Below, piece after piece: positions 2,743 to 52,109 of a DNA stretch of 64,000 nucleotides. A program made the position numbers and the translations under genes. The stretch covers positions 1 to 64,000 of the forward strand of contig JARQWU010000025.1 in the NCBI GenBank assembly GCA_040182905.1. Reading direction: 5' to 3'. How positions within the stretch are numbered: position 1 is the first letter of the stretch; each line of letters begins with the position of its first letter. The stretch is from Barthelona sp. PAP020. Taxonomy: Eukaryota. The notes beneath the pieces are model-generated. The model made no database searches. It had not been told where the DNA came from and saw only the letters and a list, made by a program, of their open reading frames with translations.

Positions 2743-3909
2743 ATGAGTGGTTATAATAGTGTGTATACTTACCCTGCAACTCTTTTTATTGGAGAAGGAA
2801 AAACTTCAAATTTGATTGCCAAAATGGCTGCTGATGGTTATAAGAAAGCCTTATTGCACTATGGTGGTGGTTCTATCAAGAATAATGGAATTTATGAAGA
2901 AGTTGTTTCTCTTTTAAAGGTGCATAATGTTGAATTTGTTGAAGCAGGTGGTCAAAAACCCAATCCTGAACTTTCCATCATTAAAGAAGCCATTGATATT
3001 TTTAAAAAAGAAGAATGTGATGTTATTTTAGCTGTTGGAGGAGGTTCTGTTATTGATTCTGCAAAAGGTATCAGTGTTGGTTGTGCTAATTCTGAAGATG
3101 TTTGGTATTATTATACCACTGGTGATTTAATTTCCGATGCAGTTCCTATTTATTGTGTTTTAACTCTTTCAGCTACTGGATCTGAATCGAATTTTGGATC
3201 TGTTGTTTCCAATTCCGAAGAAAATCAAAAATATGCTTACATGCATCCAATGTTGCTTCCTAAGGCTTCTTGCATTGATCCTAAACACCAAATGAGTCTT
3301 CCTTGGTGGCAAACTGTCAATGGTGCCATTGATGCTTGTTCTCATCTTTTTGAACAATATCTTGGCGCTGTTAGAACAGGTTGCAGAACTCCTCTTTATG
3401 CAATTGAAGGTGTTATTCAAGCTGTTGCTGATGCTACTAACAGACTTCAGGTTGAAGATACTATTCTTGCCAGGGGAGATTTGAGTTTTGCTGCTAATCT
3501 TGCCTTGAATAATATTTTTGCTGTTGGTACTGATAATGGAGATTGGGCTACTCATATGATTGCACATATGCTTGCTGCTTGTTGGGACAAGAGCAGATTG
3601 AGTCATGGTGCTTGTTTAGGTGTTTTGACTGGAGAAATTTTCTTAAGATTGAAAGAAAAAAGTGATGAATTTGCTGAATTGTTGAATAGACTTGCTCATA
3701 CCGCTTTCCATGCTGATTCTATTGAAGAAGCTGTTGAAATTTGGAAAAAACAAGTTGTTGATTGGGGACATCCCATTACCATTACTGAACTGATTGGTGA
3801 AGCTCCCACTGAAGAATATTTGGCTCAAGTTGCCAAACAAACTTTTGAACGTGGTATTCGTCATTTCTCTGAAGCTGAAATTTTGGATATTTTGAAAGCC
3901 TGTGTTTAA
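2743..3909 (+). CDS. Iron-containing alcohol dehydrogenase, butanol dehydrogenase (BdhA/YqhD)-like
   Basis: YGGGSIK, GGGSVIDSAK, TLSATGSESN, DACSH, GDWATH, SHG motifs; first ATG at 2743 (the ORF track starts at a TTG). Confidence 0.92.
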   Translation: MSGYNSVYTYPATLFIGEGKTSNLIAKMAADGYKKALLHYGGGSIKNNGIYEEVVSLLKVHNVEFVEAGGQKPNPELSIIKEAIDIFKKEECDVILAVGGGSVIDSAKGISVGCANSEDVWYYYTTGDLISDAVPIYCVLTLSATGSESNFGSVVSNSEENQKYAYMHPMLLPKASCIDPKHQMSLPWWQTVNGAIDACSHLFEQYLGAVRTGCRTPLYAIEGVIQAVADATNRLQVEDTILARGDLSFAANLALNNIFAVGTDNGDWATHMIAHMLAACWDKSRLSHGACLGVLTGEIFLRLKEKSDEFAELLNRLAHTAFHADSIEEAVEIWKKQVVDWGHPITITELIGEAPTEEYLAQVAKQTFERGIRHFSEAEILDILKACV

Positions 3910-6513: not shown

Positions 6514-9258
6514 ATGGCCATTGTTACAGAAAATAATTTAGAGCAGTTTAAACAAGTTTTACAAATAATTCAGACAGAACCGAACAAATTCTTTCAGATG
6601 TTGCCGATCATTATTGATGATATTTCTGAAACGTATAAAAAAGAGTTTAGTGATTTGGTTTTCCGTTTAAATTCAGTTTCAAATGATTATGAAGTTTTAA
6701 AGAACGTACTATCCAATCTTTTTTGTTTGGTTACTTTATCCAAATATAATATTGAAGAAATTAAACACTGTGTTGATATTTTGATTCATGAATTTGTTTT
6801 GTTTCTTAACATTTCCAAAGATAATATTCTTATGTATAATTCAAAAATTCAACAATTAGCTGAGGAAAATAATCTTAATTCAAATATTTTGGTTGCGTTG
6901 ACATATATAGGGATTAATTTAAGCCCCTTTATTGTTGATAATACCTCAAGCGCAAATTTGAATGAAAGCAAACATGATTCTACATTTTCTTCATTTCTCA
7001 CATTTCCAAGTGAAATTGAAAATATGAATGTTTATATTGAATATCCTCAAACAATTTTTGAAGCTATCTCTTCACACCGACTATCTTTTATTTATGATCA
7101 TCCTGAAATGTATGCAGAAAAAGATGAAGAAGGTTTTACTCCACTAGCCATTGCTGTTGATGAAAAGAGGTATAATCTTGCCAACATTTTGATTTCTAAT
7201 GGTTGTGATGTAAATCAACAATGTAATAATCATTTCAATCCAATTCAGATTGCAACATATTTAGAAAATGAAGAAATTTTTAAATTGTTGTTTAAGAATG
7301 GAGGAGATATATTTCTAGGGGATGAAAATGTTCCTTGTTCTTTTATTTTAGCATTTGAGTTAAAACGCACTCGAATTTTGGATATTATGACCCAATTTTT
7401 AAAAAATAAAGTGACAACCAAAGAACATATCAGTGTTGTTCAACAAATGTATTACAGAATATTAAAAAATAAAGATACTGTCATGTTTGAGTATTTATTC
7501 AAAATGTGTCCCTTGTTATTTGATGTTGATCATGTTATATATTTTTTTGAAATTTTTGATGAAATTCTTTTCAAATTTATTTTTTGTAAGGACATAAATA
7601 TTAGTTATTTTGAGGATTCAATAATTGAAGAAGTGTTTAAACAAATAATTAAATATGAAAAGAATAAAATTTTTGAAATATTTATTCAAAATGAAAATGT
7701 TTTGAAAAAGATGAAGAATAATAATGATTTTTTTGTGAAATTATATTTGGTTTGTTTAAATGAAAAAAAACATCAAATAAAAAGAAGAATTATTGAGTTA
7801 AAGATGTTTGATATTGGTGTTGAAATTGAAGGAGAACCTTTGTTGATAATATTAGCAATTGAAAATCGATTTGCTGAAATTCAATTATTAAATCCTTCAA
7901 TAAATTTATTAAACAATTGTATATCGTCTGATGGATTTTCATTTGTATATATTTGTCTTCAAATTGGTCCTTCTATTGAATTTTTAAAATATCTAATCAG
8001 TTCAATTTCATTTAATTATGCTAGAGATAACGATGCATTGATTTTTGTTTTGGAAAGAAATAATCTGAAAGAAATTCAACTTTTAACGGAGTTAAAAATC
8101 AAATGGCATTTTCCGTTCAAAAATTTTTCTTCTCCAATTTGTTATTGTATTCAAAAAGAAAATTTAAAATTAATTGATTTTCTCTTAAATGATGGTCAAT
8201 CTGACATTGACATTTTAAAGAAAGAAAAAGGTGCTTCCTTTTCACCTTTTGAATTAGCTTTATCTACTAACAATGATCAAATAGTTGAATTAATTTTTAA
8301 TCAATTGCAAATTCATGATTATACAGATGATTTAATCAATATCATTCGAAGTTATGGACAAATGAAGAATATTCCCATTAAAATTTCAAATATTATTATT
8401 GATTTAATAAATGAAGAAAGTTTTGAAAGAATTATTCAAATTTTGAAACAGAATAAAGCAAATTTTTATCTAAAGTTTGATTCAAAGTTTACAACTGTTT
8501 TTCATGAATTGATTCATCAAAATAAACTTGAATTATCAAAAAAAATCATTCAATCTATTCAAACTGATCCAATTCAGTTTCATTTAGAAGATGTTCATGA
8601 ATTCCTTCTTCTTCGTGATAGTGGACATTTATTTGGGTTACATTATGCTTGTCAAATAATGAATATGGAATTCATTGACTTATTTATACAATTGGATACA
8701 TCTCTTATGTTTTTTTGTGATAAAAACAAGGAAAATAAAGAAATGAATCAGAATAATAATATAGTTCCTCCTATATATGTCTGTTTAATGAATGAAGGGT
8801 TTGAATTTGTTTTCAATTATTTAAAAGAGGAAAAAAAAAACGATTCATCAATGATTATAGACAATTTGTCTTGGTTGATTGAAATTTCAATAAGTTTTAA
8901 AGATGATGAAATTTTTGAATTTTTGGTAAATTTCATGAAAAAAAATTTTGTTGAATTTTGTCCAACCGAAAAATTTTGTGAAATTTTAAGACAATTAATT
9001 TCTGATAAAAATTTTAAATATTTTTCAAGATTGTTGGTCAACGAAAGTCAAAATGTTCATGATAATGATTTTCATTATGTTTTTACTGACAATCAATATA
9101 AAAATTTAAGTGATATTGCTCTGAATACTGGTAATAATCGAATAATTTCCATGATACTTGATCTTGACAGAAAGAATGTTGAACAGTTTTCAAATCAAGT
9201 GAATGCTTGGTATGAGACTGATAGCTTCTTGGAGAATTCCTTTGATTTTTTGCAATGA
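6514..9258 (+). CDS. Ankyrin-repeat protein (degenerate repeats)
   Basis: GFTPLAIAV…LISNGCDVN, FNPIQIAT, SPFELAL, GLHYAC motifs in a 914-aa ORF. Confidence 0.8.
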   Translation: MAIVTENNLEQFKQVLQIIQTEPNKFFQMLPIIIDDISETYKKEFSDLVFRLNSVSNDYEVLKNVLSNLFCLVTLSKYNIEEIKHCVDILIHEFVLFLNISKDNILMYNSKIQQLAEENNLNSNILVALTYIGINLSPFIVDNTSSANLNESKHDSTFSSFLTFPSEIENMNVYIEYPQTIFEAISSHRLSFIYDHPEMYAEKDEEGFTPLAIAVDEKRYNLANILISNGCDVNQQCNNHFNPIQIATYLENEEIFKLLFKNGGDIFLGDENVPCSFILAFELKRTRILDIMTQFLKNKVTTKEHISVVQQMYYRILKNKDTVMFEYLFKMCPLLFDVDHVIYFFEIFDEILFKFIFCKDINISYFEDSIIEEVFKQIIKYEKNKIFEIFIQNENVLKKMKNNNDFFVKLYLVCLNEKKHQIKRRIIELKMFDIGVEIEGEPLLIILAIENRFAEIQLLNPSINLLNNCISSDGFSFVYICLQIGPSIEFLKYLISSISFNYARDNDALIFVLERNNLKEIQLLTELKIKWHFPFKNFSSPICYCIQKENLKLIDFLLNDGQSDIDILKKEKGASFSPFELALSTNNDQIVELIFNQLQIHDYTDDLINIIRSYGQMKNIPIKISNIIIDLINEESFERIIQILKQNKANFYLKFDSKFTTVFHELIHQNKLELSKKIIQSIQTDPIQFHLEDVHEFLLLRDSGHLFGLHYACQIMNMEFIDLFIQLDTSLMFFCDKNKENKEMNQNNNIVPPIYVCLMNEGFEFVFNYLKEEKKNDSSMIIDNLSWLIEISISFKDDEIFEFLVNFMKKNFVEFCPTEKFCEILRQLISDKNFKYFSRLLVNESQNVHDNDFHYVFTDNQYKNLSDIALNTGNNRIISMILDLDRKNVEQFSNQVNAWYETDSFLENSFDFLQ

Positions 9259-10103: not shown

Positions 10104-10650
10104 TTTTTTATAGTTGGTTGGGAACAAAAAATATCAATTATATGATGTTTCTTTTATTTATTTCAATTAAGGTTGTTACATACAACCATTTGGAGACTGT
10201 GATTTAAGATATGAAAAAAGTGTCTGCACAAAAAAAAAATGAAGACTTGATTCATTCATATGGCACTCTTGCACATTCAATTTATAAATCTCTTGAGCAA
10301 AATATGTCAATGTCACTACTGAATCAATAAATCTGTAGAAATGCATTGGAACAATTTTCGACAAAAATATTCGAACAAACAACATTACGATGAACTTTCA
10401 CAATTTTGTAACATTTTCAGAATGTTTAATTCAATATCGAAAGCACAACTATGTGGATGAATTTGAAAATAGAAATCTCAAAAAATTAAATAATCATTGA
10501 CAAAAATATCTACAAACTAGTCTAATCATTCATTCATCTAATTTCAACGACGACCGCTTCAAAATAATGACCAATTTGAGAGAAAAATTTCCAAGTGCTT
10601 CAAAAGAAAGAAAATCTTTTTTCCGATTTTTGAATTCCTTTTTTCAGACA

Positions 10651-12447
10651 ATGGTTGTTAACAATGCAATCAAGGAAATCGACCCTTACATTAAGCATAA
10701 CATGGATCAAGTTGTTGTTCCAGATGCGTTTGATGTAGATGGATTTGAAGATGATGGTCGTCCAAAGAAGATTTATTATGCAGCATGTGATGGTAATCTT
10801 GAGGTTGTCAAGCAATGTATCAAAGCTGGCGTTGATGTGAACAAACAGGGCGAGGAAGGAAGAACATCAGTTTATGGCGCTGCTATGAATGGGCATGTCA
10901 ATGTTGTTGAGTTTTTGTTGGATTTTGGAGCTGATGTTACTTTGTGCTCGAATGATGGTGTTTCTCCATTCCTTATAAGTTGTCAAAATGGTCATGTTGA
11001 TGTGGCCAAAATGCTCTTCGATCATGGCGCTGATGTTAATTTGTGTGACAATGATGGATTTTCTCCATTGCACATTAGTTGTCAAAATGGTCATCTTGAT
11101 GTGGCCAAAATGCTCTTGGATCATGGTGCTGGTGTTAATTTGTGTACAGATGAAGGTGCTTCTCCATTGTTTAATAGTTGTTACGGTGGACATCTTGATG
11201 TTACCAGATTGCTCTTGGATTATGGATTTGATGTTAATTTGTGTGACAAAGATGGATTTTCTCCATTGTATCTCAGCTGTCAAGAAGGTCATGTTGATGT
11301 AGCCAAAATGCTCTTAGATCATGGAGCTGATCTTAGTTTGTGTGATAATTATGGTTGTTCTCCATTTTACGTCAGTTGTCAACAAGGTCACCTTGATGTG
11401 GCCAAAATGCTCTTGGATCATGGTGTTGATGTTAATTTGTGTGATAATGATGGATTTTCTCCATTTTACGTCAGTTGTGAACAATGTCACCTTGATGTGG
11501 CCAAAATGCTCTTGGATTGTGGCGCTGATATAAATTTGTGTGACGATTTTGGGTTTTCTCCATTGTATCTCAGTTGTCAAAAAGGTCATCTTGATGTAGT
11601 CAAAATGCTGGTGGATCATGGGGCTGATGTTTATTTGTGTGACAATTATGGGTTTTCTCCATTCTTTGTCAGTTGTCAAGAAGGTCATCTTGATGTGGCC
11701 AAAATGTTCTTGGATTATGGAGTTGATGTTAATTTGTGCGACAATGATGGATTTTCTCCATTGCACATTAGTTGTCAAAATGGTCATCTTGATGTGGCCA
11801 AAATGCTCTTGGATCATGGTGCTAATGTTAATTTGTGTGACAATGATGGATTTTCTCCATTGTATCTCAGCTGTCAACAAGGTCATCTTGATGTAGCCAA
11901 AATGCTCTTGGATCATGGCGTTGATATTAATTTATGTACAAATGATGGTGTTTCTGCATTCTATGTCACTTGTCAAGAAGGTCATCTTAATGTAGCTAAA
12001 ATGCTTCTAAATTGTCCCAAAATGAACATAAATGGTGAAGAGATGCTAATATTTTTCAATAGATTGTATACTTGTGATGAAGAATGGCAAAGAAACGATG
12101 AATGCCGCATTTTGAGCTTTGCCAACTTGAAGCAACAATTGGAGGGAAATGAAGCTGTTGATTTGAGATTTGAGCACTTTTCTAAAGCTGAGTTAATTGA
12201 TTTGGTAAAAAATGAAGGCTATCTGTTATCGACACTTGTTGCAATGAAGGTAAACAGTGTCATTATTCGAGATTTTGTGAGTGCTGGGGTCTACATGAAT
12301 CAAAGAGATTTTGACATGACAACAAATTTTTGTTGGGATTTGGTCGACATCAATGAAAGAAACGGTGGCAATATGCGTCAGTATATTGATGAAGAAATGG
12401 AAGATGTTGACAGTGAGGAGAGTGATGAAAGTGATGCTGATTATTAA
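10651..12447 (+). CDS. Ankyrin-repeat protein (about 13 repeats) with an unrecognised C-terminal CWDLVDINE module
   Basis: 11 near-identical 33-aa ankyrin units plus 2 divergent N-terminal units; C-terminal module shared with the WD40 gene at 28887; start at 10651 (after a T-tract) or 10567. Confidence 0.92.
   Translation: MVVNNAIKEIDPYIKHNMDQVVVPDAFDVDGFEDDGRPKKIYYAACDGNLEVVKQCIKAGVDVNKQGEEGRTSVYGAAMNGHVNVVEFLLDFGADVTLCSNDGVSPFLISCQNGHVDVAKMLFDHGADVNLCDNDGFSPLHISCQNGHLDVAKMLLDHGAGVNLCTDEGASPLFNSCYGGHLDVTRLLLDYGFDVNLCDKDGFSPLYLSCQEGHVDVAKMLLDHGADLSLCDNYGCSPFYVSCQQGHLDVAKMLLDHGVDVNLCDNDGFSPFYVSCEQCHLDVAKMLLDCGADINLCDDFGFSPLYLSCQKGHLDVVKMLVDHGADVYLCDNYGFSPFFVSCQEGHLDVAKMFLDYGVDVNLCDNDGFSPLHISCQNGHLDVAKMLLDHGANVNLCDNDGFSPLYLSCQQGHLDVAKMLLDHGVDINLCTNDGVSAFYVTCQEGHLNVAKMLLNCPKMNINGEEMLIFFNRLYTCDEEWQRNDECRILSFANLKQQLEGNEAVDLRFEHFSKAELIDLVKNEGYLLSTLVAMKVNSVIIRDFVSAGVYMNQRDFDMTTNFCWDLVDINERNGGNMRQYIDEEMEDVDSEESDESDADY
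10930..12018 (+). repeat. Tandem array of 11 x 99-bp ankyrin-coding repeats
   Basis: Period exactly 99 nt; 11032-11130 and 11725-11823 differ at one base. Confidence 0.95.
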
Positions 12448-17917: not shown

Positions 17918-20900
17918 ATGACACAAATAATAATAGAGAAGATAATTAAAAAATTATTGACAAGATTTGTTGAAAGTGATTTTAATTTTGCCATTTCTTT
18001 ATCAAATGGTGAAATTCAATTACAAAATGTACAAATTCGAATAGATTTTATTGAATCTTTATTAAATGTTAATTTTTTGAAACTGCATTTGATTAAATGT
18101 AAGACTTTAACATTATCTTTCAATTATTCGACCTTATTTAATGAAGGTTTTGAAATGATTTTGGGCGGTGTTGAAGTTGATGGAGAATTTTTGAATAAAA
18201 CTCATCCAAAAATTTACATTGCTAATTTTAACAACAAAAATAAAGAACAAAATGAAAATATAAGGGAAGGAAAGAAAATAAATGGGGAAAAAAATGATGG
18301 TTGGATGGAAAATTTGTTGAATAAAATAATATTTTCCTCCAAAGTTCTTATTAGAGATGTAACCCTTAAAATTGATGATTTAAAGGTTATGAATAAATCC
18401 TTTGATATTAATTTTGAGACGATAAACGGACTTCCCAAAATCCATGGAAAAATCACAGAATTGGTTTTGATGGACAAAGAAATGACGATTTTTGAGATTG
18501 ATGAGTTGTTTTTGGATGACTTTATCAATATCTATACTCCCAAAATTAAATTTTCTGCGTCTATCAATTTGATATCAAAATATGTTTGGTTGAAGGACAT
18601 TGAAATTGCAATAATAACAAGCGAAACATTTGAAACGTTTCAAACAGAGATAATAAATGATTTTGTTCTTTTAGAAGAATATGAAGATCTTTCCATTATC
18701 AATGGCATTAATCATCCTATTAAGGAAGATGATTTGTGTATTGAAATAAATATTGATGAAGTTGAACTTGTTTATGATTTGCTGAGTTTGAAAATTTTGG
18801 GTATAAGCATAAAGGATTCTTTTAACTACATTTTAGTCAATGAAATGCAAATATTGTTGAATGAATGTGTTTTGGTGCATATTCCATCAGCCAGTATAAT
18901 TTCATGTGTTGCTGATGGTAAAAAATTGTTGATGGATTGTATCTCGATAAGTTGTCAGATGGAACATATAAGCACAATTATGAGTCTTTTCAACAGTTTG
19001 AAGTCTTATTTTTTAAAGAATGAAAATTTGGATGGTTCAAAAGATTATATAAATGCTGATATTGAGATGAAAAGTCATAATAATTATGAGATAGCAATAA
19101 ATAAAATTGAGGGAAATCTTACATTATCAAGGTTTGGACCTCTTTCAATAACTGTCAATGATATCATAAATACCAACGATACGTTGACCATTTCCAGTAT
19201 TTTTGTGGGTGTTGCTAAAAAAGAAATGAATGCGTTGTCACTTTTACGTTTGAGCAGTATAAAATTGGAGATAGATACTAATTCTCTTGTTTTAGGCAAA
19301 GTACGTTTTGAAACATCAGCATTAACTTTGAGATATTTCCTTTCTAGCACAATTCAACTGCTTAATAAAGATTTCCCCAAATTTTTTCCACCTAACAACA
19401 CAAACTCAACTGTTACAAAGAAAAATCAAAGCAATGAAGATGTTTCTACTAGATTTAGGATAACGTTTGAAACGCCAATTTACATTAAAACGACTTTTGA
19501 TAAAATTGATGTGTTTGCAGAAATCACTTTTTCCCCCATTGATCTTTTTGAAAATTCAACATCTCTTTGTTTGTTAAATGTACAGAAATTAAGTATTTAT
19601 TGTTCTTCTGAAGACAAAATTCCAATTTCAGTTCTTGTAAATTCTCAAACCTCTGAATATGTCTGTTCAATTTCTATTGATAATGATTTAGCAATCAATA
19701 TTACCTTAAATGGATTGATTTTCACATTACCCTTTCGTTACTTTGTACAATTCAATGCCATCAACTTCGATTTACCCACAATTACTCCTATGTATGATTC
19801 TCCACCATTGGCCATTGATTTAACGATGAATTCTACTTTAATTTATTTATATGATGATTTAACCTTTGACTTGATTGATGAATCATCCAAAGATCAGATA
19901 AATTCTCCTTCGGTGGCCTTCATTATTGACCATCTGTCATTTATAGATTCAAGTGATGCTTGGGGAAAAGTTCGACTTTTTTTGGGAGTTGCAAAAGATG
20001 TGGAAAATTTCCCTGTTTCAACAATAGATTTGCTTTCTGTATTGTCAACTCATGGATTGAAGCAAATTTTTGACATTGATTTAAGTTTAAAAATAAAACC
20101 AAAGGAATTAATTATAAAAACTACTTTTGGAATTTATTTATCGCCAAAAAACATTTCCCATATCATTGAAATATTTGAAAAGTTTGAAAAGTTTGACGAT
20201 ATAAACAATAATGATGTTGATGAATTTTTTGAATCAAATATTGAATATACAAATAAAGATGAAAGGAAAGAGAAGATTAATGACGTATTCAATCGAAGTA
20301 TTCCCATGGTTGAGGAAGAAATTTTATTGAATGCCACTTCAAACAGATTGAATATTGTTGAAGAGTATTTTTCGAAAATGGAAGAATCTGAATCATTTTC
20401 GCGGCGAATGGGATTAAATTCGACACCTTTACAGGGAGAATTATTATCAAACAATATTAATGGTGATAACGCATGGAATATCAGCATAGTTGTACCCTTA
20501 GCAGATATTCAACTACATACTGATGACCATGAATTAAAAAAAATGAATTTAAAGAAGCTGAATAATTCCATTTCGTTAAAGTTAATTAATCTTGATATTG
20601 GAACAAGTATCACTTCAGACCAAATTATTTTCTGTTCAACACTTCAAGATTTGATTATTCGTGATAACTTTATTAACAGCCCTTTTAGATATTTATTTAT
20701 TCGTAAAAATAATGACATCAGATGTCCAATTATGTATTTAAATATGAAAAGTACAACCGAAGAATTTTCCTGTTTTTTTTCGCTCAGGCCCATTGAAATC
20801 GGATTCAGTTCGGTTAGTTTTGTTCATCTCTTTTCTTTTCTTTTGCCATTTTTAGCCTTAGAAAACAAAGATTTGGATGCTAAAAAGTATAAAAATGAGA

Positions 20901-21736
20901 ATATTGAGAGTATCAAAAACAAATTTTCCGTTGAAAAGTCAATTCCAATTAACCCTGATTTAAATGTTATTGATTCAGCAAATGACATTAGAATCACTGT
21001 AAAAACCTCTAAAATTAGTTTCATTGTATCATTTGAACCCTGTGATGTTGATTTAAATGTTGAATTTTTCAGCACTAATAAAAAAGAAAATGAAAATAGT
21101 TCTCTCATTGATTTGTTAAGTTCAGTGTTACAAATTATTCCGGTTCGAAATTTTCACGTAGTTTTTAAGCCTCTACATATTTCTACTGGAAGTGACAAAT
21201 TCACAGCAATTCTTTTGAACATTCTAAAACCAACATTAACAAAACACATTCTTAACTTTGCCATCACCTTACCTATTATCTCCTCTTTCGTTAATGTGAC
21301 AAAATCATTTCTCTTGATTTTTTTCAATCCCCATTCGGATACCCACTCTTTTAAGCTAAAAACACTGTCAAAAGATTTCCAAAATTTTTCAAAAGATTTG
21401 CTGAAAGAAACAACTTTAACAATGCAATTTTCTTTGAATATGTTCAGTAACCTTTTGATTCTTATTCCATCAAGAGTGTTGTCTGGAGTTCCACTTTTAT
21501 CAAATATTTGGAGTCGTCCAATGGAATTCCCAGATAGTTTGGCAAAATTTAGACAAAGCTTAGTTCAAGAAGTAAAAATTTGGCCAAATTCAAAAATTAA
21601 AAAAGTTGGGGCATTGGTATCTGTTCCATTCAGATTAGGTGGTGCTTTCGCAAACGGTTGTAGTCAAATTCTATATAGTTTATTAGTTTCAATCAATGAT
21701 GACTTGAATTTTCAGGTCAATAATCAATATAAATAG
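17918..21736 (+). CDS. ATG2: ATG2-like bridge lipid-transfer protein (chorein-N, ATG_C-like end)
   Basis: N-terminal KKLLTRFV…ISLSNGEIQLQNVQIR (chorein-N); beta-rich body; C-terminal amphipathic helices LPIISSFVNV…P…VPFRLGGAFANGCSQIL…QYK. Confidence 0.6.
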   Translation: MTQIIIEKIIKKLLTRFVESDFNFAISLSNGEIQLQNVQIRIDFIESLLNVNFLKLHLIKCKTLTLSFNYSTLFNEGFEMILGGVEVDGEFLNKTHPKIYIANFNNKNKEQNENIREGKKINGEKNDGWMENLLNKIIFSSKVLIRDVTLKIDDLKVMNKSFDINFETINGLPKIHGKITELVLMDKEMTIFEIDELFLDDFINIYTPKIKFSASINLISKYVWLKDIEIAIITSETFETFQTEIINDFVLLEEYEDLSIINGINHPIKEDDLCIEINIDEVELVYDLLSLKILGISIKDSFNYILVNEMQILLNECVLVHIPSASIISCVADGKKLLMDCISISCQMEHISTIMSLFNSLKSYFLKNENLDGSKDYINADIEMKSHNNYEIAINKIEGNLTLSRFGPLSITVNDIINTNDTLTISSIFVGVAKKEMNALSLLRLSSIKLEIDTNSLVLGKVRFETSALTLRYFLSSTIQLLNKDFPKFFPPNNTNSTVTKKNQSNEDVSTRFRITFETPIYIKTTFDKIDVFAEITFSPIDLFENSTSLCLLNVQKLSIYCSSEDKIPISVLVNSQTSEYVCSISIDNDLAINITLNGLIFTLPFRYFVQFNAINFDLPTITPMYDSPPLAIDLTMNSTLIYLYDDLTFDLIDESSKDQINSPSVAFIIDHLSFIDSSDAWGKVRLFLGVAKDVENFPVSTIDLLSVLSTHGLKQIFDIDLSLKIKPKELIIKTTFGIYLSPKNISHIIEIFEKFEKFDDINNNDVDEFFESNIEYTNKDERKEKINDVFNRSIPMVEEEILLNATSNRLNIVEEYFSKMEESESFSRRMGLNSTPLQGELLSNNINGDNAWNISIVVPLADIQLHTDDHELKKMNLKKLNNSISLKLINLDIGTSITSDQIIFCSTLQDLIIRDNFINSPFRYLFIRKNNDIRCPIMYLNMKSTTEEFSCFFSLRPIEIGFSSVSFVHLFSFLLPFLALENKDLDAKKYKNENIESIKNKFSVEKSIPINPDLNVIDSANDIRITVKTSKISFIVSFEPCDVDLNVEFFSTNKKENENSSLIDLLSSVLQIIPVRNFHVVFKPLHISTGSDKFTAILLNILKPTLTKHILNFAITLPIISSFVNVTKSFLLIFFNPHSDTHSFKLKTLSKDFQNFSKDLLKETTLTMQFSLNMFSNLLILIPSRVLSGVPLLSNIWSRPMEFPDSLAKFRQSLVQEVKIWPNSKIKKVGALVSVPFRLGGAFANGCSQILYSLLVSINDDLNFQVNNQYK

Positions 21737-22500: not shown

Positions 22501-24150
22501 TCACATTTTTTCCAATTGCTCAACATAAGCCTTTGGAGTAACAATGGTTGTACCACCAATGAACACATTAACAACTTCTTCATCTGAAACATAAAATTCT
22601 GCTGGTGAAATACCACCAATCACAAAAACAACTAAATTAATCAATCTGTTTCTGATAGGCAATGCACCAGATCTGGGAGAAATTGAATAGTCTTCAGGCA
22701 TTGATCCTCTTTTCACCAAATCAATCTGTTTTTCAATAAATGAGCTGTAAGTTGGGGTCATAACAGCATCAGTTGGGTCAAAATATCCTCTGGAACGTTG
22801 AGTAACAATATTTGTTAACTTATGAACTTGTTGAAATGCACGGCTTAATTTTCCTCCTTCATTCAATGCACCAAATCCATTGGCATTTAAGAATGTCTCA
22901 AAATCGTTTTTGTCATTGAATACACCCTGATTGTGTTCTTGAACATTTGCCATACACAACAAAAGTCTTTTTTTATCCATTGGATCTAAATTGGGATTGC
23001 CTAAAACTGGTGCCAACTTTTCTTCTGAAACATTGCCGTTAATTCGCATGAAACCATTGATCTCTTGTTCCAAAACAGCAACTTCAGCCAGGATGGAGAT
23101 ATCATCATCATTATTGACAGCATATTTGTTGATCATTTTTTTTAGGTATTGAAAGTGCTCTTTGATCAAACCTTCTGCTTTTTGGGCTTCAAATCCTAAT
23201 TTTGCCCTTTGACGTTCATCCAATGCAGCAGATGCGGTAGAAAATTGGTCTTTAACTGCATTTAAAGCCTCTTCAATGTACATTGAAGCTGTAAATATAT
23301 TTCTGAAACGTTGCTCGTAAAAGAAATCGTTATCAACTCTAGCCTTCGTCGTTTGCTTGTTGAGGAACTGTCCTTTAATATCTATTTTTTTTGTGATGGG
23401 GTCAATACCAATCATATCGTATAACAACGCTTCATATGACAAGGTATGCATCAAAGGTGTCATATGATCTTCCCTACGATCAACAATCATAAATATAGAA
23501 TCTGGTGTTGATGAACAGTTCATTAAATTGTTCATCTTAGTCTTTAAATTTCTAGACAAATATTTTTCAGAATTTGAAGAAATAATTGCCCAATTTCCTT
23601 CAACAGCAGTAATCATAGATGTCAACTGTGAAGCTATGGTGTTTAACAACTGATCATTCAATGATTTTAAATCATTCAATTGGAATTGGGTGGGCAAGAC
23701 AAAAATATTGGTGTCAACAGGCAATACTTCACAACAGGAATCATCAAACGTCTTCATATACTTTAACCAAGTATTTGCTCCATTTCTCATAAACTCAACA
23801 ATATTATGATGTTCTTGAGATGAAATACGATGAGAAAAAAACAAATAGAATCTTCTATACATATTTTCTTTGGAATCAGGAAAATCTTCGGCTAAGATTT
23901 GTAAATTCTCCATAGTAGGTGAAATGAAATAAATGGCATCAAAGGCAGGAAGAGGAGAACGTTCGGAACGGGAACGAATCTTTTCAACAAGACTTACATG
24001 ATGCAATAAGACATCTTTTAAAGAAATTACAGACCCCAAAATCTTCACAGTAATATCATCAACAATTAATATTTTTTGAACCTTGGAAGAACCAGACTCT
24101 AAGACTTTTGTGATATGATCACGCGTAATATCTGCTAAAATAACTGACAT
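22501..24150 (-). CDS. Sec1/Munc18 (SM) family protein
   Basis: KILIVDD, DAIYFISPT, IVDRREDHMTPLMHTLSYEALLYD, VFVIGGISPAE, IGGTTIVTP; first ATG at 24150. Confidence 0.92.
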   Translation of the reverse strand: MSVILADITRDHITKVLESGSSKVQKILIVDDITVKILGSVISLKDVLLHHVSLVEKIRSRSERSPLPAFDAIYFISPTMENLQILAEDFPDSKENMYRRFYLFFSHRISSQEHHNIVEFMRNGANTWLKYMKTFDDSCCEVLPVDTNIFVLPTQFQLNDLKSLNDQLLNTIASQLTSMITAVEGNWAIISSNSEKYLSRNLKTKMNNLMNCSSTPDSIFMIVDRREDHMTPLMHTLSYEALLYDMIGIDPITKKIDIKGQFLNKQTTKARVDNDFFYEQRFRNIFTASMYIEEALNAVKDQFSTASAALDERQRAKLGFEAQKAEGLIKEHFQYLKKMINKYAVNNDDDISILAEVAVLEQEINGFMRINGNVSEEKLAPVLGNPNLDPMDKKRLLLCMANVQEHNQGVFNDKNDFETFLNANGFGALNEGGKLSRAFQQVHKLTNIVTQRSRGYFDPTDAVMTPTYSSFIEKQIDLVKRGSMPEDYSISPRSGALPIRNRLINLVVFVIGGISPAEFYVSDEEVVNVFIGGTTIVTPKAYVEQLEKM

Positions 24151-25822: not shown

Positions 25823-27691
25823 ATGGTTAAATGTAAGATTTTACTCATATTATTGCTATTTTCATTGAAACTTATTTTATGTGAAACTCTAGATTATGAT
25901 TCATTGGCCCCTATTTTATCTGAATCTTTAAATTTAAATGAAGATAATAGCTTTTCAATTGATAGTATTTTTGATGATTATTCGCAAAGTTCAAATTATT
26001 TTGATGAATTTTATCCAATTGGTATGGAAATTGATACAACTTTGATTTATGATAATCTTTATTCCATTGATATTGACGGAAGCATTGAAACTAATGTAAA
26101 TTCTGATGATGGAACCATTAATTTCACTTTTGATATTGATATTGATGTTACTCCACTTGAAAATTCCATCTATTCTTCAAGCGAAATCGATTCATCTGAA
26201 GAAACTACTGCTGTGGATCCTTTTGCACCAATCGATTCTTATCTTTTTGATACTACATCTGTCACTGAAGAGAGTGATTATGCTGATTATACACAGGAAG
26301 AAGCACAAGAACAACAACAGGAAGAAGAAGAAGATGATGATGCAATTGATTATTCATCCACTGATATTTTAACTCCATTGCCAAATTATCCAAAATTAAT
26401 TGCTGATGTTGTTAATACTCTTTGGAATGTAATATATGTTCATAACAATCGGTCAACAAGTTTGGATGTTGATTCAATTATTGATCCATATCCAGAATTG
26501 CCTGGAATAGGTACTTCTCCAATTGATGTTGATTCATCCGAATTACCAGTTAATGATGATGAAAGTTCATTGCCTGATTCTACTGAATCAAACATTGACG
26601 ATACAATTGAACCTGAAAATGATCAAGAAACATCCAACAATTCGAGTGGTCAGGACACTGACATTGATGGTTCAAATACAGAAGAAATATCTGGTGATTC
26701 CGATGAAACTATTCCTGACACGACCGAATCTGATGGTTCTAATTCGCAAAATGTTGAACCAGAAGAATCTGGTACTGAAAGTAACACTGATCCAGTCGAT
26801 TCATCAATTGTTGAACCATCTGAACCCTCTTCAACTGAAGAACCTTCTACAGAAGAAGATGTCATTGAGGAATCTGACTCTACACCCGAAGAATCTGTTT
26901 CTACACCTAAACTTGACTCTGAATCTGAACCAACTCCTGAAGTTGAATCTGAAATTGAACCTGAGGTTGATCCTGCAGTTGAACCTGAAGATGAAAATGA
27001 TCCATCAGACCCCTATATTGAAACTACAGATTCAATCGATTCAGATGGTTCAACTGCTGATGAGCCATCAGATGACTCATCATCTTCAAACAATGAAGAG
27101 TTGAACACTCCAACATTTATTATAAATTCAGTTGAACCTTCCCAAATCCAATTTGCTTCCACAGGTATTGAATATGTTAACATTCGATGCGATAATATCC
27201 ATCAAAGAATACCTGTTGTCAACAATACCACCATTATTAATGGATTAGAAAATGGTGTTGTATGTCAAATTACTACTGATTCTGATGTTCAAATCACAGA
27301 ATCTGTTGTTATTCCTTTTGAAATACCTGTTTCTCCAACAGTTGAATTGAGATTTTTGCAAAATGTGCCTGTTTCTTTGATTATTTCTTGGGATCCAATT
27401 CCACAATCTGAACTTTACAAATTGATTATAACTGGTGACATGGAAAAAACAATTGAAACTGTTGATAATTCAGCATCTATGGATCTTCCCGTAAATATGG
27501 ATGGAAAGGAAATAAAAATCACATTATCGTGCAAGAATGAAGTCTCAACGTGGTCAGACGAATCAAAAGCTACTGTTGTTACACTATCACATGAATACAT
27601 CCAACCTGATAATCACAGTGGAATTGAAAAGAGTACAATTCTTGCATTTAATCTTATTGTTGGTTTGCTCATTTTATTTTTTACAATTTAA
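25823..27691 (+). CDS. Acidic Ser/Thr/Glu/Pro-rich cell-surface protein with FN3-like region and C-terminal hydrophobic anchor
   Basis: Signal peptide ILLILLLFSLKLILC; mucin-like middle; SLIISWDP…YKL…ITLSCKN…SDES (FN3-like); terminal ILAFNLIVGLLILFFTI (TM or GPI signal). Confidence 0.75.
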   Translation: MVKCKILLILLLFSLKLILCETLDYDSLAPILSESLNLNEDNSFSIDSIFDDYSQSSNYFDEFYPIGMEIDTTLIYDNLYSIDIDGSIETNVNSDDGTINFTFDIDIDVTPLENSIYSSSEIDSSEETTAVDPFAPIDSYLFDTTSVTEESDYADYTQEEAQEQQQEEEEDDDAIDYSSTDILTPLPNYPKLIADVVNTLWNVIYVHNNRSTSLDVDSIIDPYPELPGIGTSPIDVDSSELPVNDDESSLPDSTESNIDDTIEPENDQETSNNSSGQDTDIDGSNTEEISGDSDETIPDTTESDGSNSQNVEPEESGTESNTDPVDSSIVEPSEPSSTEEPSTEEDVIEESDSTPEESVSTPKLDSESEPTPEVESEIEPEVDPAVEPEDENDPSDPYIETTDSIDSDGSTADEPSDDSSSSNNEELNTPTFIINSVEPSQIQFASTGIEYVNIRCDNIHQRIPVVNNTTIINGLENGVVCQITTDSDVQITESVVIPFEIPVSPTVELRFLQNVPVSLIISWDPIPQSELYKLIITGDMEKTIETVDNSASMDLPVNMDGKEIKITLSCKNEVSTWSDESKATVVTLSHEYIQPDNHSGIEKSTILAFNLIVGLLILFFTI

Positions 27692-28886: not shown

Positions 28887-30113
28887 ATGACGTCACTTAG
28901 CAGAGAAAAATATGTGCAACAAACTGTTCGAGAATTAATGACACCATCTATTGACCCAAACGAAATCAAAGTACTTGAAAAAACATTAACTAGTAATATG
29001 TTTGATTCTAAGTATTCTCCTGATGGCAAATATTTCATGGCAATAGATAATACTAATTCTTCTATTTTATTAGTTTTTGATGGGGAAACTGGTGAATATA
29101 TCCGTACTTTATCATGTCATGATCATGCAAATATATATTCTGTTGCGTTTTCTGACGATAATCGATATTTAGCAACAGCATCTTTAAATAAAGATATTGT
29201 AATTTATGACATGACAAATGATTTTTATATTGATCATGAATATACTGATGTTGATTCAATATTTTCCCTTGTGTTTTCTCACTCTTGTGATTATTTGTAT
29301 TATGCTGGAAGTGGTAAAGTAAAAAAGATGGATTTACGAACTAAGGAAACTGTAGGACAAGTTGAAGCTCATGCTGGGTATATTTGTCGATTAAGAATTT
29401 CTCCTGACGATAGATATGTTCTTTCTGGAGGAGATGATGGAACTGCTAAGCTTTTCAGAACTGAAACAATGGAACGTGTCCAAACTTTTGAACCTATGTC
29501 AGGAAATGTTAGAGGTATTGATTATCATCCAAATGGACACATGATTGCCACAGGGACCTGTTCACCAGGCAAAGTTTCTTTATGGAATACAGAAGATGGA
29601 TCATTAGTTCACACATTTTCTTTACCTGGTGAGGTGCATTATCTGAAATTTCTGTTATACAAATGGATACTTGTTTTGTCAGGAAATGATGGTTTTTATT
29701 TGTTTGATATTGATACTTTTGCCAAAATTCAACATGTGCCATGTGGTGCATCTGTTTCATATTTCTCGTTTGATGTTTCACCAGATCTTACAAAGATAAT
29801 TTATGGCGGTGATGCGGACCAGCGTATTAAAATGGTAACAATTAATTTATGCAGTGATGAAACAATGAAAGAACAATTGTTGGAGTTGTCTCGTCCAGAT
29901 GGTTATGTTTTGTCCAGTTTAATTGCTATTAACAACATTTCCCCTATCAGACAGTTGGTTGCAGCTGGAATTTATATGAATCAACATGATTATGAAATGA
30001 CTATCAATAATTGCTGGGATCTAGTTGATATCAATGAAAAAAACGGGGGTAACATGCATGAATTTATGAGCAATTTTTGTGACTCTGGTTCTTCTTCTTC
30101 TGATGATGATTAA
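28887..30113 (+). CDS. WD40-repeat protein with the same C-terminal CWDLVDINE module
   Basis: About 7 WD blades (YSPDGKY, VAFSDDNRYLATAS, AH…ISPDDRYVLSGGDDGTAKLF, YHPNG…LWN); last ~80 aa match the ankyrin protein tail. Confidence 0.92.
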   Translation: MTSLSREKYVQQTVRELMTPSIDPNEIKVLEKTLTSNMFDSKYSPDGKYFMAIDNTNSSILLVFDGETGEYIRTLSCHDHANIYSVAFSDDNRYLATASLNKDIVIYDMTNDFYIDHEYTDVDSIFSLVFSHSCDYLYYAGSGKVKKMDLRTKETVGQVEAHAGYICRLRISPDDRYVLSGGDDGTAKLFRTETMERVQTFEPMSGNVRGIDYHPNGHMIATGTCSPGKVSLWNTEDGSLVHTFSLPGEVHYLKFLLYKWILVLSGNDGFYLFDIDTFAKIQHVPCGASVSYFSFDVSPDLTKIIYGGDADQRIKMVTINLCSDETMKEQLLELSRPDGYVLSSLIAINNISPIRQLVAAGIYMNQHDYEMTINNCWDLVDINEKNGGNMHEFMSNFCDSGSSSSDDD

Positions 30114-30318: not shown

Positions 30319-33300
30319 CTATTTATTTGAATATAAGAATTTGGTACAAATCCATAATGTAACCAGACAAATTGTTGAATAAATGATTGAAAAATTGCTT
30401 TCGATAAAAAAAGCTTGTAAGGTTGTAACAGGAAGAATAATTTGTGAAAAATTATCTTTAAATTCACCATTAATAGGAAAAAACGAAACAATAAACAGAA
30501 ATGAAACAATAGATTTTTTAACATCAAAAACAACATTTGGAACACGATAAATTGGATAAAATGTTGGGGAATAAAGTAAATAAGACCCAAAAGAAATGCA
30601 GAGATAAAATTTTAACAAATCCGAGAGATTTCTAAATGTTTTGAAACTTTGTTCTTTGAAAACATTAATAAATTTGAAAAAAAGAACAAACATACTGAAG
30701 ACGATACATAAATAAAAAAGAACAGGTTTTGACAGAAAACCAAATGAAATAATGAAACTTTGAAAGATATTTAATATCGGAAAGTATTCATTAAAACTTG
30801 AAACAACAATCAAATAAGAATGTATTAACATTGCATGATTGATAATTTTTCCAGCAAAAACAGTGATAACAATACAAATAACCAATATAAACCCGATCTC
30901 AAACCACAAATATTCAACGCAAATACCTGAAAAAGTTCGAACATAACCATCAGAACATTGCAAACAATACATCCCAGTATGATTTGAAGAACAAGTGCTA
31001 TTTCCTTTGCAAAAAGATGAAACACATTTTGTGATCTCATTGGTACCTTCATTAAAAAAATACCCATTCAATGAACCAATCACCTTTCCATTCTTACAGA
31101 TAACAGATGTATCACATGGTATGCATTGAATATCTTTCAATACAAACCCATCAACACAAGAACAATTATCAACATGATTATTATACAAAGTTTTGTCAGT
31201 ATACATATTATTTGGACAATCCAAACATTTATCACTGTTAGGATGGGGAGAAAACGTCCCTACACCGCATTTTTCACACACTTGAATAAGTTCGGTTGAA
31301 TGTTCTTTGACATAAGTCCCAGAAGGGCAAACACAATGGTCATTCAAAAGAATATGACTTCCGGGACAATTCGATTGAATCAATTCATTTGTTGATAATC
31401 CTGAAGCACAAGATACCTTAACAAACAGATTATTCAACGTTTTAAAATCGAATGTGTGAACAAAATAGAAATTTGAACTATTTTTTTGAAAAACAAATTC
31501 AACAATTTGAGAACTCGATCCGTTGCCTTCAATATTTCCAACACTGGCAAAAACTTCACAATAATCATCAGAAATAAAAACTGTTTGATTGTTTGATGAT
31601 GTAAACAACTGAATATTTAACATAATTTTTATTCCATATTCAGAAACTGTTGATTGTACTGAAGTGATGTTGATGAAAGAAGGAACATTTGGAATGATTA
31701 ATAAAGGAATTACGTATTCAGCATAATCGATATTTAAAGTACAATTCCCATTTTCTCTTGGTTTTAACGACATTTCTTTGATGTCATATCCTGCAATTAA
31801 ATCTCCAATTTTTAAAGTATCATAATAGTCAAAACAATTAAATGATGCCTCTGATTCTACAAACCATTCATAATGATTCAATTCCATTGAAGATGAAACA
31901 TATTCAATATTTAATGGCATAAAGGAAAAAGTGTCATTAATATAGACAATAAAAGATGGAATCAACAAAGAATCAAGGTCATTAAGGCTAACTCTCACAC
32001 TGGGACTATCTATTATCAAATCAACAGATGAGACATTTAATACGACATCAAAGACATTATTTGGCACATATTTTACGTTCAAAACAATATTCTTTCCGTC
32101 AAATATCCAGTCTAACGATGTAATAAAATCAGATTCTGGTTTTATAACAATATTTTTTATATCTTTCAAATTATCAATTATTGACAATTTTAAATAATTA
32201 AACAAAAGTAATTCAAAAAAATTTTCACAAAAAGTGTCAATAAAACACTTATGATTTTCTTCTGATACCTCAATTTCAGATAAAACACCATAATAAGGTG
32301 AACTAACTGGCCAACCATAAATGCTTACTGAAACTAATTTTGAATCGAGATGACACTCATCATAATCAACAAAAAGAGAAAAATGGTCTGTATTATTGAT
32401 AATGACTGGAATGGAACAAAAAGTCTGCAATGATATAGTTGAATATCCAGCAATCTGCTCGCACACAGAAGATTTAAATATGTTGGTGTATGTAGTTGAC
32501 ATGCTTGCATCTTCAAGAATAAAAACTTTAATGTTCTCAACCAAACATATTTCATGCAGGCTTAACATAATTCCAAAAACTGTATGATTTTGCTTTAAAG
32601 TAACATCTATCCTTTGTTGCTTCAAGGAACTTAAAGAAAGACCACAATTTTCATTTCGACAACAACGTTCATCGTTCAACTTATCATCAATAATAGCCAT
32701 ACCATTTAGAATTAATTCGTTGGCTAGAAAACCAAGGTCAAAAGAGTAAGCAAATGGCTGACTGAGATCATAATCTCTGTAACATAAAGGGGATTTGTTG
32801 TCCAACACCAGAATTTGTCCCAGATTAAATGATTGAGAACCATTATTACCGAATAAAATAGATACATTCAATATTCCAGACTCTTGAGCATTGAACATAA
32901 AACTTGCTTCAAATTCCAACGAAAATATATTACCTATGTTAATTGTTGCATGTTCTGTTGTTAATAATTTTAAAATTTGCTCATTTCCATCAATAAAAAA
33001 CAATTTTCCAACATTATAATAATAAGAAGTTTCACCTAAACTTAACATACCCATACTTACATTATAATAAACGAACTGTAACTTAGTTTCTATCCAATTT
33101 AATCCACACCTAAAGAATATATCAAATTTTTGGTGTGATACACTCTTATCAAAGACATCGAATGAACCAACAAAAATATTATTGTTTGCATCATTATTTA
33201 CTTCAATTATCTGTTGTTCATTGAAATCTGTATTAATTAATAGAATTTCAGTAATTTTTATCATAACTAATGAATCTGTTTCAAAACAGATTTCAAAAAT

Positions 33301-36300
33301 GAACGTTTCATTCAAACCGGTCAAAATTAAGTCGTTATCTGTCTGTTTAAAGAAAAAACTAGGTGGAATAATCGCTTTGATAAAGGCTATTTCCACAAAT
33401 TGTCCATCAAAAACAAAACATAAAGTTAACTCACTTTCTTGCCAATAATTGACATTGCACAACATATACTCATCAAAAAATAGACATTCTACAGGAGAAT
33501 TCATTGTACTATCTCCCAAAACTATGTGATCAATAACATTCACAAATCCTTTCAAATTAGGTTCAATTAGACATTTGAAATTATAGTCTACACCCACTAA
33601 AACAATTTCATCACACAAAACTCTAAAGAATTGGGAACTTATGTCATATTCAAATGATGACCCGTTTGTAATAACTTCAAAAATAGTAGTTTCAACAAAA
33701 GGACAAAACCATACGCCGTTTTCAAAAAAACAATCAAAAGCGCTTCCATTATTGTCCATGATCGCCATCTCATCAATGTTAATCTTTGTAGAAAGCTTTA
33801 AATATCCAGTAAATAAATCAGTAATAAATAAAGGACCTTCAAGTGTTAATTGAGGTTTTTGAATTTCACCAACAAAAAAATTATTAAACAACAATGAAGC
33901 AAATTCATAAACATCATTCCCTTCAACATTGTCTTCATTGGTCCATAGACATATCATACATATATTATATCTAGAATTTATGAATGATTGAGTAACAATT
34001 GAACAGCCAAGGCTAGTTGCAAACGATAGATTTTCACCAAGATTCTTTCCTTCAACAAATATACATTTTTCTTTTGCATGCGGAACAATGTATACCTCAA
34101 ATGTTATTTCAAATACACTTATTTCAATCTCTGAAGACATAGCAATATCATCCACAATTACTATTGGTTTGTCCACTGCTGAAAACTCATTTGAAACTTC
34201 AAAAGTGGCAAAAGTATCGACAATCTTGGATGGTTGGTAATTTTTATGAAATAATCTTAAAGAGACAATTGAATCTGAAACAATAGCCTTGGAACGTACA
34301 AATAATTCATAAGTTACTCCTACAAGCATTTCTGCAGGTGTTATAGCTTCAATTTCAGATAATTTGATTATAACACCGTTAGAAATCATTTCATTTCGTG
34401 ATATTTGAAACATAAACATCTCATCATCATCATTAACATCATATTTACAAAAAAATGCAGCTACTTCATGTGAAAATGCAGTTGCAGATGTTTTCATCAA
34501 AGTTTTAAGCGTATTAATATCGACAATTTCCAAAAGCAGACTAAAATTGTCATTTTCACTGGATCCAAAATTGGACCCTCTAATATCAAATGAAATTCCC
34601 TTTTGAAGTTGGGAATGACTAAAAGTAGATGGGGTTATCGAAATTAATGAGGGTCTAACAAGACTTAAAATAACATTTTGATTGACCATTGAATTTTTCT
34701 TGAGAAAACAATTGACAGTGATGTCATTGGGAGTATTTGCTTCTTGAAATTTTAACTTTAATGAAAAATCAGAAACCAACTGAATTTCTCCAGTTAATCC
34801 ACGGGCATTATTAATGACAATGCAATTAAATTGCTCGTTGCAGGAAAAATCACCCAAATATTGACCTTCAAGTGTTGTTGATGTGTAACCTGTGTTTAAA
34901 ACACCATTTCCTTTTAAAATAAATGGTATATGAGTGATTTCAAATTCTTTTGTCATTTGTCCTTCACTGTCCAAAATAACTGTTTCTGACTGACAAAAAG
35001 AAGCAATGAAAAAAGTAATTTTCCCAAGGCTCCATGTTAAGACTTCAACATATTTATTATGAATTGCTAACGTTGACTTAAAACTCAATTCTTTTCCAAA
35101 TATTATAATGTGGTATCCATCATCAACAACGTCAATCTTAAAGTCGTTAACAGTAGGTTCCATACAGTTGATGTTTGTTTCAACAAACAGTTTGCCAATC
35201 ATTACAACTGCTTTCTTCTTCAAACCATATGAATAATCAGGAAGAGAGACATTAAGCATATTACCAGCAACACTAACAACAGTTGCTTGAATCTCATCAA
35301 CATAAACTGTCACATATTCTGACCAATACCCAAAATATGTACCTGTAAAGTTAACTTCTCTATTATCCCCACTGAAACTATAATCAAAAATTGTTGGTGC
35401 TGGATATGGTATCGGATCATATCTATCACCATTACATGTATGCAAGGGAATACACTCAGTACAAACATTTGACTCAAAATCATAGTATGTTCCAGCTGCA
35501 CATTGAATACATTCTACTCTGTTTACAGAGGAATAATGTGTGATAGGACACATTATACACTGCTGATAATCATCAGAAATTCGCTCAAAAATGGAACATT
35601 CAATTGAATCAGAATCTTTCCCTGGACAAGCATGCCCAAGAGGACATGTATCACAATGTATGTTTTCAGCATTATAAAGTGTATTTGGCGGACAAGACCA
35701 ACAAAAATCTTGGCCAGTCTCATTTTGATGGGTTTCAGGTCCACAACGCTTGCATTCCGTTTGTCCAACTTCATCTTGATATTCATTAAGTGGACAGGCA
35801 ATTTGTTTTAAATAACCTGTGTCTAAAGATACAGGAATCGGGACATAATGTCCAACAGAAGCGCTTATACAACTAGTTTGACCAGACAAAGACTGATATT
35901 GTCCCGAATTGCAAGCTATTTGTTCTGTATTTCCATAAGTATAAGGAACATAATATCCAGCATCAGCAGGATAACAATGAATGACTTCAACCTCATAAAA
36001 CGAGGGATCACAATAACATTCCCCATTTTTCATCACACCAACACCATTGCAACCACAAAATGAAATATCTTGCAAACTTTGGGTACATTCCACACAACTA
36101 CTCTTGAAAGTAAACAAATCAATTGTATTTGAAACAGTATTATCCTTCCTAGTAACAACAACAGTATCATTTTTCCCAAAAGCTATCGCAAAATCAGCTT
36201 CCGAATTCTTACAATCAATCACAAATTCATTGATTTTATGAAACTTATTATCAACAGGGGATAACCAATATAAATACACATATGCTTTCAACTCTGTAAC

Positions 36301-52049: not shown

Positions 52050-52109
52050 AATAATTTAAGAAAAAAAAATGAAATGAAAAAAAGCATTCATTTGTATGTT
52101 TATGGCATA

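Follow-up and report, generated by a model that had tools for sequence, protein, structure and literature searches.

To our knowledge, receptor boxes of cullin ligases have been described from hardly any organisms other than animals, fungi, plants and their pathogens. Among such receptors, FEM1 has an ankyrin scaffold and ZYG11 an armadillo scaffold. The SOCS-box receptors of CRL5, represented by the ankyrin-type ASB and the WD40-type WSB proteins, place a constant C-terminal box behind interchangeable WD40, ANK and other scaffolds (PMC3355856, PMC3779351), and the VHL-box receptors of CRL2, including FEM1, ZYG11/ZER1 and PRAME, combine a repeat scaffold with a short box (PMC4878042). The reported BC-box consensus is (S,T,P)LxxxC/S/AxxxPhi (PMC4878042), to which a Cul2 box of the form PhiPxxPhixxxPhi is added 8-23 residues downstream (PMC3355856, PMC4878042); a proline is described as necessary in cullin boxes (PMC3355856). 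The poxviral and Orientia ANK-PRANC/F-box proteins, reported as expanded families, join ankyrin repeats to a C-terminal adaptor. The cullin clade that uses VHL and SOCS boxes is reported to be restricted to Amorphea (PMC12816148). However, the lineage-specific trypanosome cullins (TbCul-E/F/G) have been described as working with Skp1 paralogs and with kelch or LRR receptors lacking F-box, BTB and DCAF motifs, showing that protist cullin ligases can use receptors without canonical boxes (PMC12816148). BTB-Kelch fusions have been reported as likely Cullin 3 adaptors in Carpediemonas (10.1101/2021.03.14.435266), which makes cullin ligases plausible in the metamonad part of the tree.

Here we describe a protein module that is encoded twice in a 64,000-nucleotide stretch of DNA (the window) from Barthelona sp. 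PAP020, an anaerobic flagellate that is free-living. Barthelonids are a deep-branching metamonad clade. The strain is now named Parabarthelona vacuolata (PMC13087550), and as a metamonad it lies outside the range reported for the SOCS/VHL cullin clade (PMC12816148). By sequence, the module falls outside the SOCS, VHL, F and PRANC boxes, yet it is arranged like them. No sequence shared with the trypanosome receptors is known; the TbCul complexes were obtained by affinity purification (PMC12816148), whereas the barthelonid module is described here from its sequence. A description of the family was not found in the literature searched, which comprised freely available main texts; that of PMC11316075 holds no occurrence of WD40, ankyrin, ubiquitin or cullin, and its supplements may list such genes.

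Two proteins of the window share a C-terminal module

The window is rich in AT, with 22-35% GC per 2 kb, and its genes are densely packed; they form long, uninterrupted ORFs whose products are of eukaryotic type. One of these ORFs, at 10567..12447 of the forward strand, encodes a 626-residue protein with 12 ankyrin repeats by Pfam; another, at 28887..30113 of the same strand, encodes a 408-residue WD40 protein consisting of an N-terminal helix, a propeller, the module and an acidic tail. Whole-protein BLASTP of the two gave one real HSP of 68 columns with 54% identity (E 1.3e-21), the remaining seven HSPs having E values of at least 0.38. Their common C-terminal module shows 37 identities over 64 aligned residues with one gap, running from K540 (nt 12184) to M603 (nt 12375) in the ankyrin protein and from K328 (nt 29868) to M390 (nt 30056) in the WD40 protein, both on the forward strand. 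In full, the two copies comprise K540-Y606 (12184..12384, forward strand; 93.5 bits against a 31-sequence profile) and K328-F393 (29868..30065, forward strand). Both proteins terminate in tails rich in Asp, Glu and Ser, an acidic tail in the ankyrin protein (12385..12447) and a Ser/Asp tail in the WD40 protein (30066..30113), each forward-strand interval including the stop codon and assigned from the ORF sequence and the family pattern.

These results reproduce the identity count of an earlier note on this DNA, and both peptides quoted there, as well as the acidic Ser/Asp tails, are present in the sequence. The interval that the note gave for the ankyrin copy, 12181..12447, identifies the right locus, starts one codon early and ends with the stop codon. 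It had also called the upstream scaffolds unrelated, which agrees with 12 ankyrin repeats in one protein and WD40 repeats, predicted to form a seven-bladed propeller, in the other; both scaffold-module fusions are single genomic ORFs.

Further comparison revealed different codons at 19 of the 37 identical residues. The Nei-Gojobori method gave a pN of 0.27 and a pS of 0.72 for the module pair, with a corrected dN/dS of ~0.13 that is rough because pS is near saturation; the final 33 codons taken alone give a pN of 0.15 and a pS of 0.83. The codon differences together with the pN and pS values indicate old common ancestry under purifying selection rather than recent DNA duplication, in keeping with the protein-level selection that the earlier note had read from the synonymous differences. 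Judged by eye, the DNA likeness between the two genes dwindles past the module and in the 3' flanks. A degenerate DNA pattern of the module core matches the window twice, which none of 100 shuffles equalled, and no third copy was found in the window with a 2-sequence profile, the 31-sequence profile or the DNA pattern.

Eleven near-identical ankyrin repeats (residues 125-487; 10939..12027, forward strand), the predicted binding scaffold, follow an exact period of 33 residues (99 nt) with a mean DNA identity of 79% (range 61-97%), which suggests recent tandem expansion or conversion. The adjoining upstream gene (6514-9258, forward strand; 914 aa) also contains ankyrin repeats but, according to the profile searches, has no module.

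Names of most other ORFs in the window were read from their translations, with Pfam support for some only. The ORF at 2743-3909 (forward strand) encodes an iron-containing alcohol dehydrogenase (Pfam Fe-ADH, E 6e-41), an enzyme typical of anaerobes and possibly of bacterial origin here. Those at 17918-21736, 22501-24150, 48657-49220 and 52074-53006 we take to be ATG2/VPS13-like, Sec1, CHMP5 and VPS26C membrane-traffic genes. A 4,595-residue product of the reverse strand (30319-44106) appears to carry a signal peptide and has ephrin-receptor-like repeats rich in cysteine, weak TIG and FG-GAP matches and a hydrophobic C-terminus; it is likely a giant surface protein. The 622-residue protein at 25823-27691 (forward strand), acidic and rich in Ser, Pro and Glu, has hydrophobic ends and no Pfam match, and by appearance is mucin-like or GPI-anchored. 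A 3,585-residue ORF (53138-63895, reverse strand) lies in very AT-rich DNA (22-28% GC) and gave no Pfam match at E <= 1.

The module defines a family in one barthelonid

A profile built from the two sequences was searched against 1,835,955,588 cluster representatives at E <= 0.001, the only exhaustive search among those made. It returned 42 matches, 38 of which are real members (clusters at 50% identity), the WD40 protein of the window among them. P0028, P0036 and P0041, which carry bacterial Ig-like repeats, and the TPR protein P0037 were excluded because they lack the core and scored only through their repeats; P0046 and P0047, of 51 residues and unrelated sequence, were dropped as well. Three extra sequences with Trinity names came from clusters already in the set. 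All 38 members have the core near the C-terminus and one copy of the module per protein.

According to Pfam and inspection, 26 members are single WD40 propellers of ~400 residues, two of them truncated, and five are longer proteins of the propeller type (four of them backed by Pfam) that mostly have a helical segment at the N-terminus. Three members of 877-961 residues, with little or no Pfam support, were read as tandem propellers, and the rest comprise two ankyrin proteins, an armadillo protein and a module-only fragment. The window ankyrin protein is 50% identical to P0002 across 260 residues. The armadillo scaffold of P0019 is importin-alpha-like (E 5.5e-8), and its module is distinct, being 39% identical to the window WD40 copy; as the non-window members all stem from one transcriptome assembly, this single fusion could be chimeric. 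No NTPase or recognisable effector domain was found by Pfam in the family members.

Of the 37 non-window members, 30 were looked up; without exception they are EukProt entries that derive from a transcriptome assembly and bear the label Barthelona sp. PAP020. The exhaustive two-sequence-profile search, together with word-indexed and contig searches, found no member outside this strain, in a library that may miss other barthelonid proteomes. The word-indexed searches were insensitive here: one recovered the query alone among 12 candidates, another 11 members among 7,997 scored candidates, and a third none among 191 candidates, overlooking the known 59-residue member P0018. Alignment of the two sequences located no module in viral or metagenome contigs. 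The core DNA pattern gave three matches in metagenome, none in viral and seven in prokaryote contigs; all ten were taken as chance because each scores at most 15 bits, compared with 67-110 for members. Altogether, the module is real and lineage-restricted, and a barthelonid has it on no fewer than 38 divergent repeat proteins. Both the expanded, lineage-specific family and the constant C-terminal module on unrelated scaffolds, here WD40, ANK and ARM, had been anticipated in the earlier note, and the profile search and architecture tabulation that it proposed brought up many copies on several scaffolds. Protist lineages commonly have their own expansions of repeat proteins that bear private domains.

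Some members have further features. P0048 and P0049 have different WD40 propellers and the same module and tail sequence, which may reflect recent exchange or an assembly chimera. The longer propeller proteins P0031, P0032, P0042, P0043 and P0044 have in common a helical motif near the N-terminus, of the approximate form Y-x-LI-x3-F/Y-D-L; it may be another element specific to the family and pack on the module. A resemblance to a degenerate kinase in the N-terminus of P0025 (residues 80-270), ahead of its ankyrin repeats, found no support, with 3.6 bits to a kinase of the window and no Pfam kinase match.

Predicted structure and similarity searches

The AlphaFold model of the WD40 protein, built with 26 sequences, contains a seven-bladed propeller at residues 21-320 (28947..29846, forward strand; mean pLDDT 92.4), the predicted binding scaffold. 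Structural similarity search gave a WD40 domain as its best match, with a Z score of 38.9 and an RMSD of 1.7 over 283 aligned residues, and searches with the whole model were filled by propellers. The module is predicted to be a domain of ~70 residues and five helices (325-335, 341-347, 354-359, 366-385 and 390-401), and a model of the module alone, from 39 aligned rows, has the identical five helices (pLDDT 82.6, pTM 0.68). In WD40 members, a predicted N-terminal helix (6-17) might pack on the module.

Foldseek searches with the module model gave no match at E <= 0.001 either in the PDB (best E 0.82) or among viral structures (best E 1.6), where four F-box-named rows at E 3.1-7.0 are at noise level. 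VIA-align against 48,161 chains gave none at Z >= 5; its matches are mostly armadillo/HEAT-type arrays, the best having a Z score of 4.7 and an RMSD of 5.7 with 84 residues aligned. The Foldseek check suggested in the earlier note thus found no confident match to a known domain; the fold searches demonstrate neither a new nor a different fold, and they speak neither for nor against the three-helix fold of the SOCS box or the fold of the F-box.

At the sequence level, PDB searches reached a best E of 0.59 with a single module and 0.096 with the profile, and the ESM Atlas gave no usable match (best score 0.80 with low recognition). A Pfam scan of 31 members matched 11 families at E <= 1, with HMMER filters that drop most matches above E 0.1; on the 31 modules themselves, the matches are weak and scattered, none reaching a meaningful level (best E 0.004, at most two members per family), and there are none to Ank. 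A degenerate ankyrin repeat was considered and rejected as the identity of the module: hhalign gave a probability of 0.29% and a score of 8.8, equalled by 17 of 60 column shuffles.

Conservation of the module and variability of the scaffolds

Seven residues (R355, G361, D378, L379, N383, G388 and N389) are invariant in all 39 rows, and W377 (37 of 39) and C376 (35 of 39) are nearly so. Pairwise identity among 23 full-length WD40 paralogs averages 28% in the propeller, 42% in the module and 69% in the core 376-391; within the module it rises from 30% in the first third to 37% in the middle third and the 69% of 376-391. The conserved core occupies the last ~40 residues of the module; in distant members, helices one and two have diverged. 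The distance of the invariant GGN from the C-terminus is 7-30 residues, with a median of 18 (n=41), and at least four of the last ten residues are Asp or Glu in 36 of 41 members.

The WD40 blades are old and divergent, unlike the homogenised ankyrin repeats. Loop identity in the propeller is 18% for d-a, 26% for b-c and 41% for a-b, and also 18% for c-d on the other face, the faces being assigned on the assumption of standard WD40 topology. Among the nine internal ankyrin repeats, the difference is 0.49 at six positions that we take to be DARPin-type binding positions and 0.24 at the other 27, a contrast matched by 2.5% of random six-position sets; several positions outside the presumed binding face vary too. 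A pN/pS of 10 at five ankyrin positions was discarded, since many two-fold codons have a pS close to zero. The variability of the scaffolds fits diversified binding surfaces only moderately.

The module tree, computed from 41 modules and 70 columns after leaving out the isoforms or near-copies P0030, P0034, P0045 and P0049, is mostly open, with four of 38 inner branches starred. It groups two close ankyrin modules (100/98), and a single clade of all three ANK-bearing modules is not rejected (AU p 0.40), so that repeated independent fusions are no more than a possibility; three unrelated folds need at least two scaffold changes.

Comparison with known receptor boxes

Like the SOCS box, the module lies at the C-terminus behind WD40 or ANK scaffolds. 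Compared to the SOCS box, however, it has no BC-box leucine, no LPxP and no Pfam match, and instead consists of ~70 residues in which an invariant core, WDL...N..NGGN, is followed by an acidic tail. The BC-box pattern matches none of 31 modules, and [STP]L occurs in none of 39 rows, where position 2 of the would-be box is I in 27, V in seven, T in two and another residue in three, never L. A relaxed spacing of I/V372-x3-C376-x3-hydrophobic 380, equal to that of the BC box, is seen in 28 of 39 rows; any amphipathic helix would be expected to show such i, i+4, i+8 spacing, and the predicted helix begins six residues ahead of the would-be box. The Cul5-box pattern LPxP, expected downstream of a BC box, is absent from all 31 modules, and SOCS_box, a model which the searched Pfam library presumably contains, is not among the 11 families matched by the 31 members at E <= 1.

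The VHL box likewise differs from the module, which leaves the BC-box consensus unmet and lacks the Cul2-box proline; a Pro anywhere after C376 occurs in only one of 39 rows. Compared to ANK-PRANC proteins, the barthelonid family is cellular and mostly WD40, with no F-box-like LPxE and no relative in the viral contigs searched. An F-box signature of the LPxE(I/L/V) type is found in none of 31 modules, and the 31 members have no Pfam F-box or PRANC match. A [WFY]Dx[RK] pattern for the WDxR motif of DCAFs matches two of the 31 modules, the part of the proteins that was scanned; DDB1-binding H-boxes are so degenerate that a pattern cannot pick them out. Lacking box motifs, Pfam matches and ankyrin likeness, the module is filed under no known box. 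The motif tests bear out the impression in the earlier note that it is no canonical SOCS, F or PRANC box, and the three findings that it named as telling against its module did not turn up: Pfam gives no match, there are many copies, and dN/dS lies far under 1.

A putative docking handle of possible cullin-ligase receptors

Because a small terminal domain is more conserved than the many scaffolds that carry it, the module most probably serves as a docking handle for one shared partner. The known systems with such a layout are cullin-RING receptors, and on this analogy the module could be a lineage-specific receptor box of a cullin-RING ubiquitin ligase, to which we give slightly less than even odds. 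In a more far-reaching version of this reading (probability roughly 0.38), the barthelonid box would be independent of the F-, SOCS-, VHL-, BTB- and H-boxes and plug ~40+ WD40, ankyrin and armadillo proteins into a cullin-RING ligase, a WSB/ASB-like system that would have arisen by convergence in a deep-branching metamonad. We propose that the variable propeller, ankyrin or armadillo surface would bind a client, and that the helix 366-385 with its C-W-D-L, together with the N-x-x-N-G-G-N turn, would contact the common partner or hold the contacting fold. That partner would be a Skp1/Elongin-C-like adaptor or a cullin N-terminus, and the bound clients would be ubiquitylated. For this explanation as a whole we count the architecture, the conservation gradient, the variable presumed binding faces, the trypanosome precedent and the BC-box-like spacing; against it we count the absent canonical BC box and cullin proline, the Amorphea-restricted clade and the mixed variability of the faces.

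The architecture and the conservation gradient would fit equally well if the module docked its proteins on a hub other than a cullin, such as Cdc48/p97, the proteasome, a chaperone, a coat or cytoskeletal scaffold, or chromatin, with the acidic tail helping. The missing cullin-box motif and the acidic tail in 36 of 41 members favour such a hub, SOCS boxes requiring no acidic tail, but the clearest precedents for WD40, ANK or ARM scaffolds with a small terminal box are cullin receptors, and we regard a non-cullin hub as somewhat unlikely. A far-diverged true SOCS or VHL box from the Elongin-BC system would account for the C-terminal position, for the pairing of WD40 and ANK as in WSB and ASB, and for the I-x3-C-x3-hydrophobic spacing; it is very improbable, given the BC-box leucine in none of 39 rows, the lack of a cullin-box proline, the helix that starts six residues early, the absence of a Pfam box match in 31 members and the reported restriction of the cullin clade to Amorphea (PMC12816148).

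There are two other explanations. As a homotypic assembly or signalling domain, it would cluster proteins whose repeats sense foreign or damaged molecules, in an innate-immune-like manner. The recently homogenised ankyrin repeats, with variation enriched at the predicted binding positions, the large expansion in a single lineage, and the pair P0048/P0049 with different propellers on the same module (by exchange or assembly chimera) agree with this; against it, Pfam shows no NTPase or effector domain, the WD40 blades are old, divergent and not homogenised, and any fixed partner would account for the purifying selection on the module. Complex prediction with two module copies, made without an alignment and with an uncertain fold, scored 0.00 twice and is evidence for neither side. 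We consider homotypic assembly unlikely. A little less likely still is a module that has no shared protein partner, whether it serves as a structural cap, stabilises its scaffold or is a small domain for catalysis or ligand binding. A purely structural role could explain the invariant Gly, Asn, Arg and Asp, many of the invariant residues being Gly or Asn in a predicted turn, and the possible packing of the N-terminal helix (6-17) of WD40 members on the module would suit a cap. However, the module is more conserved than its scaffolds, sits on three unrelated folds and is unlike the window ankyrin repeats in the hhalign comparison, and the replacement of C376 by V or S in four of 39 rows argues against a catalytic cysteine.

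If the cullin reading is true, the design of a variable repeat with a constant box would have arisen again, as a new metamonad box on three unrelated scaffolds. Even without a cullin partner, the module defines a large, seemingly undescribed family in this lineage, and would represent a new interaction hub.
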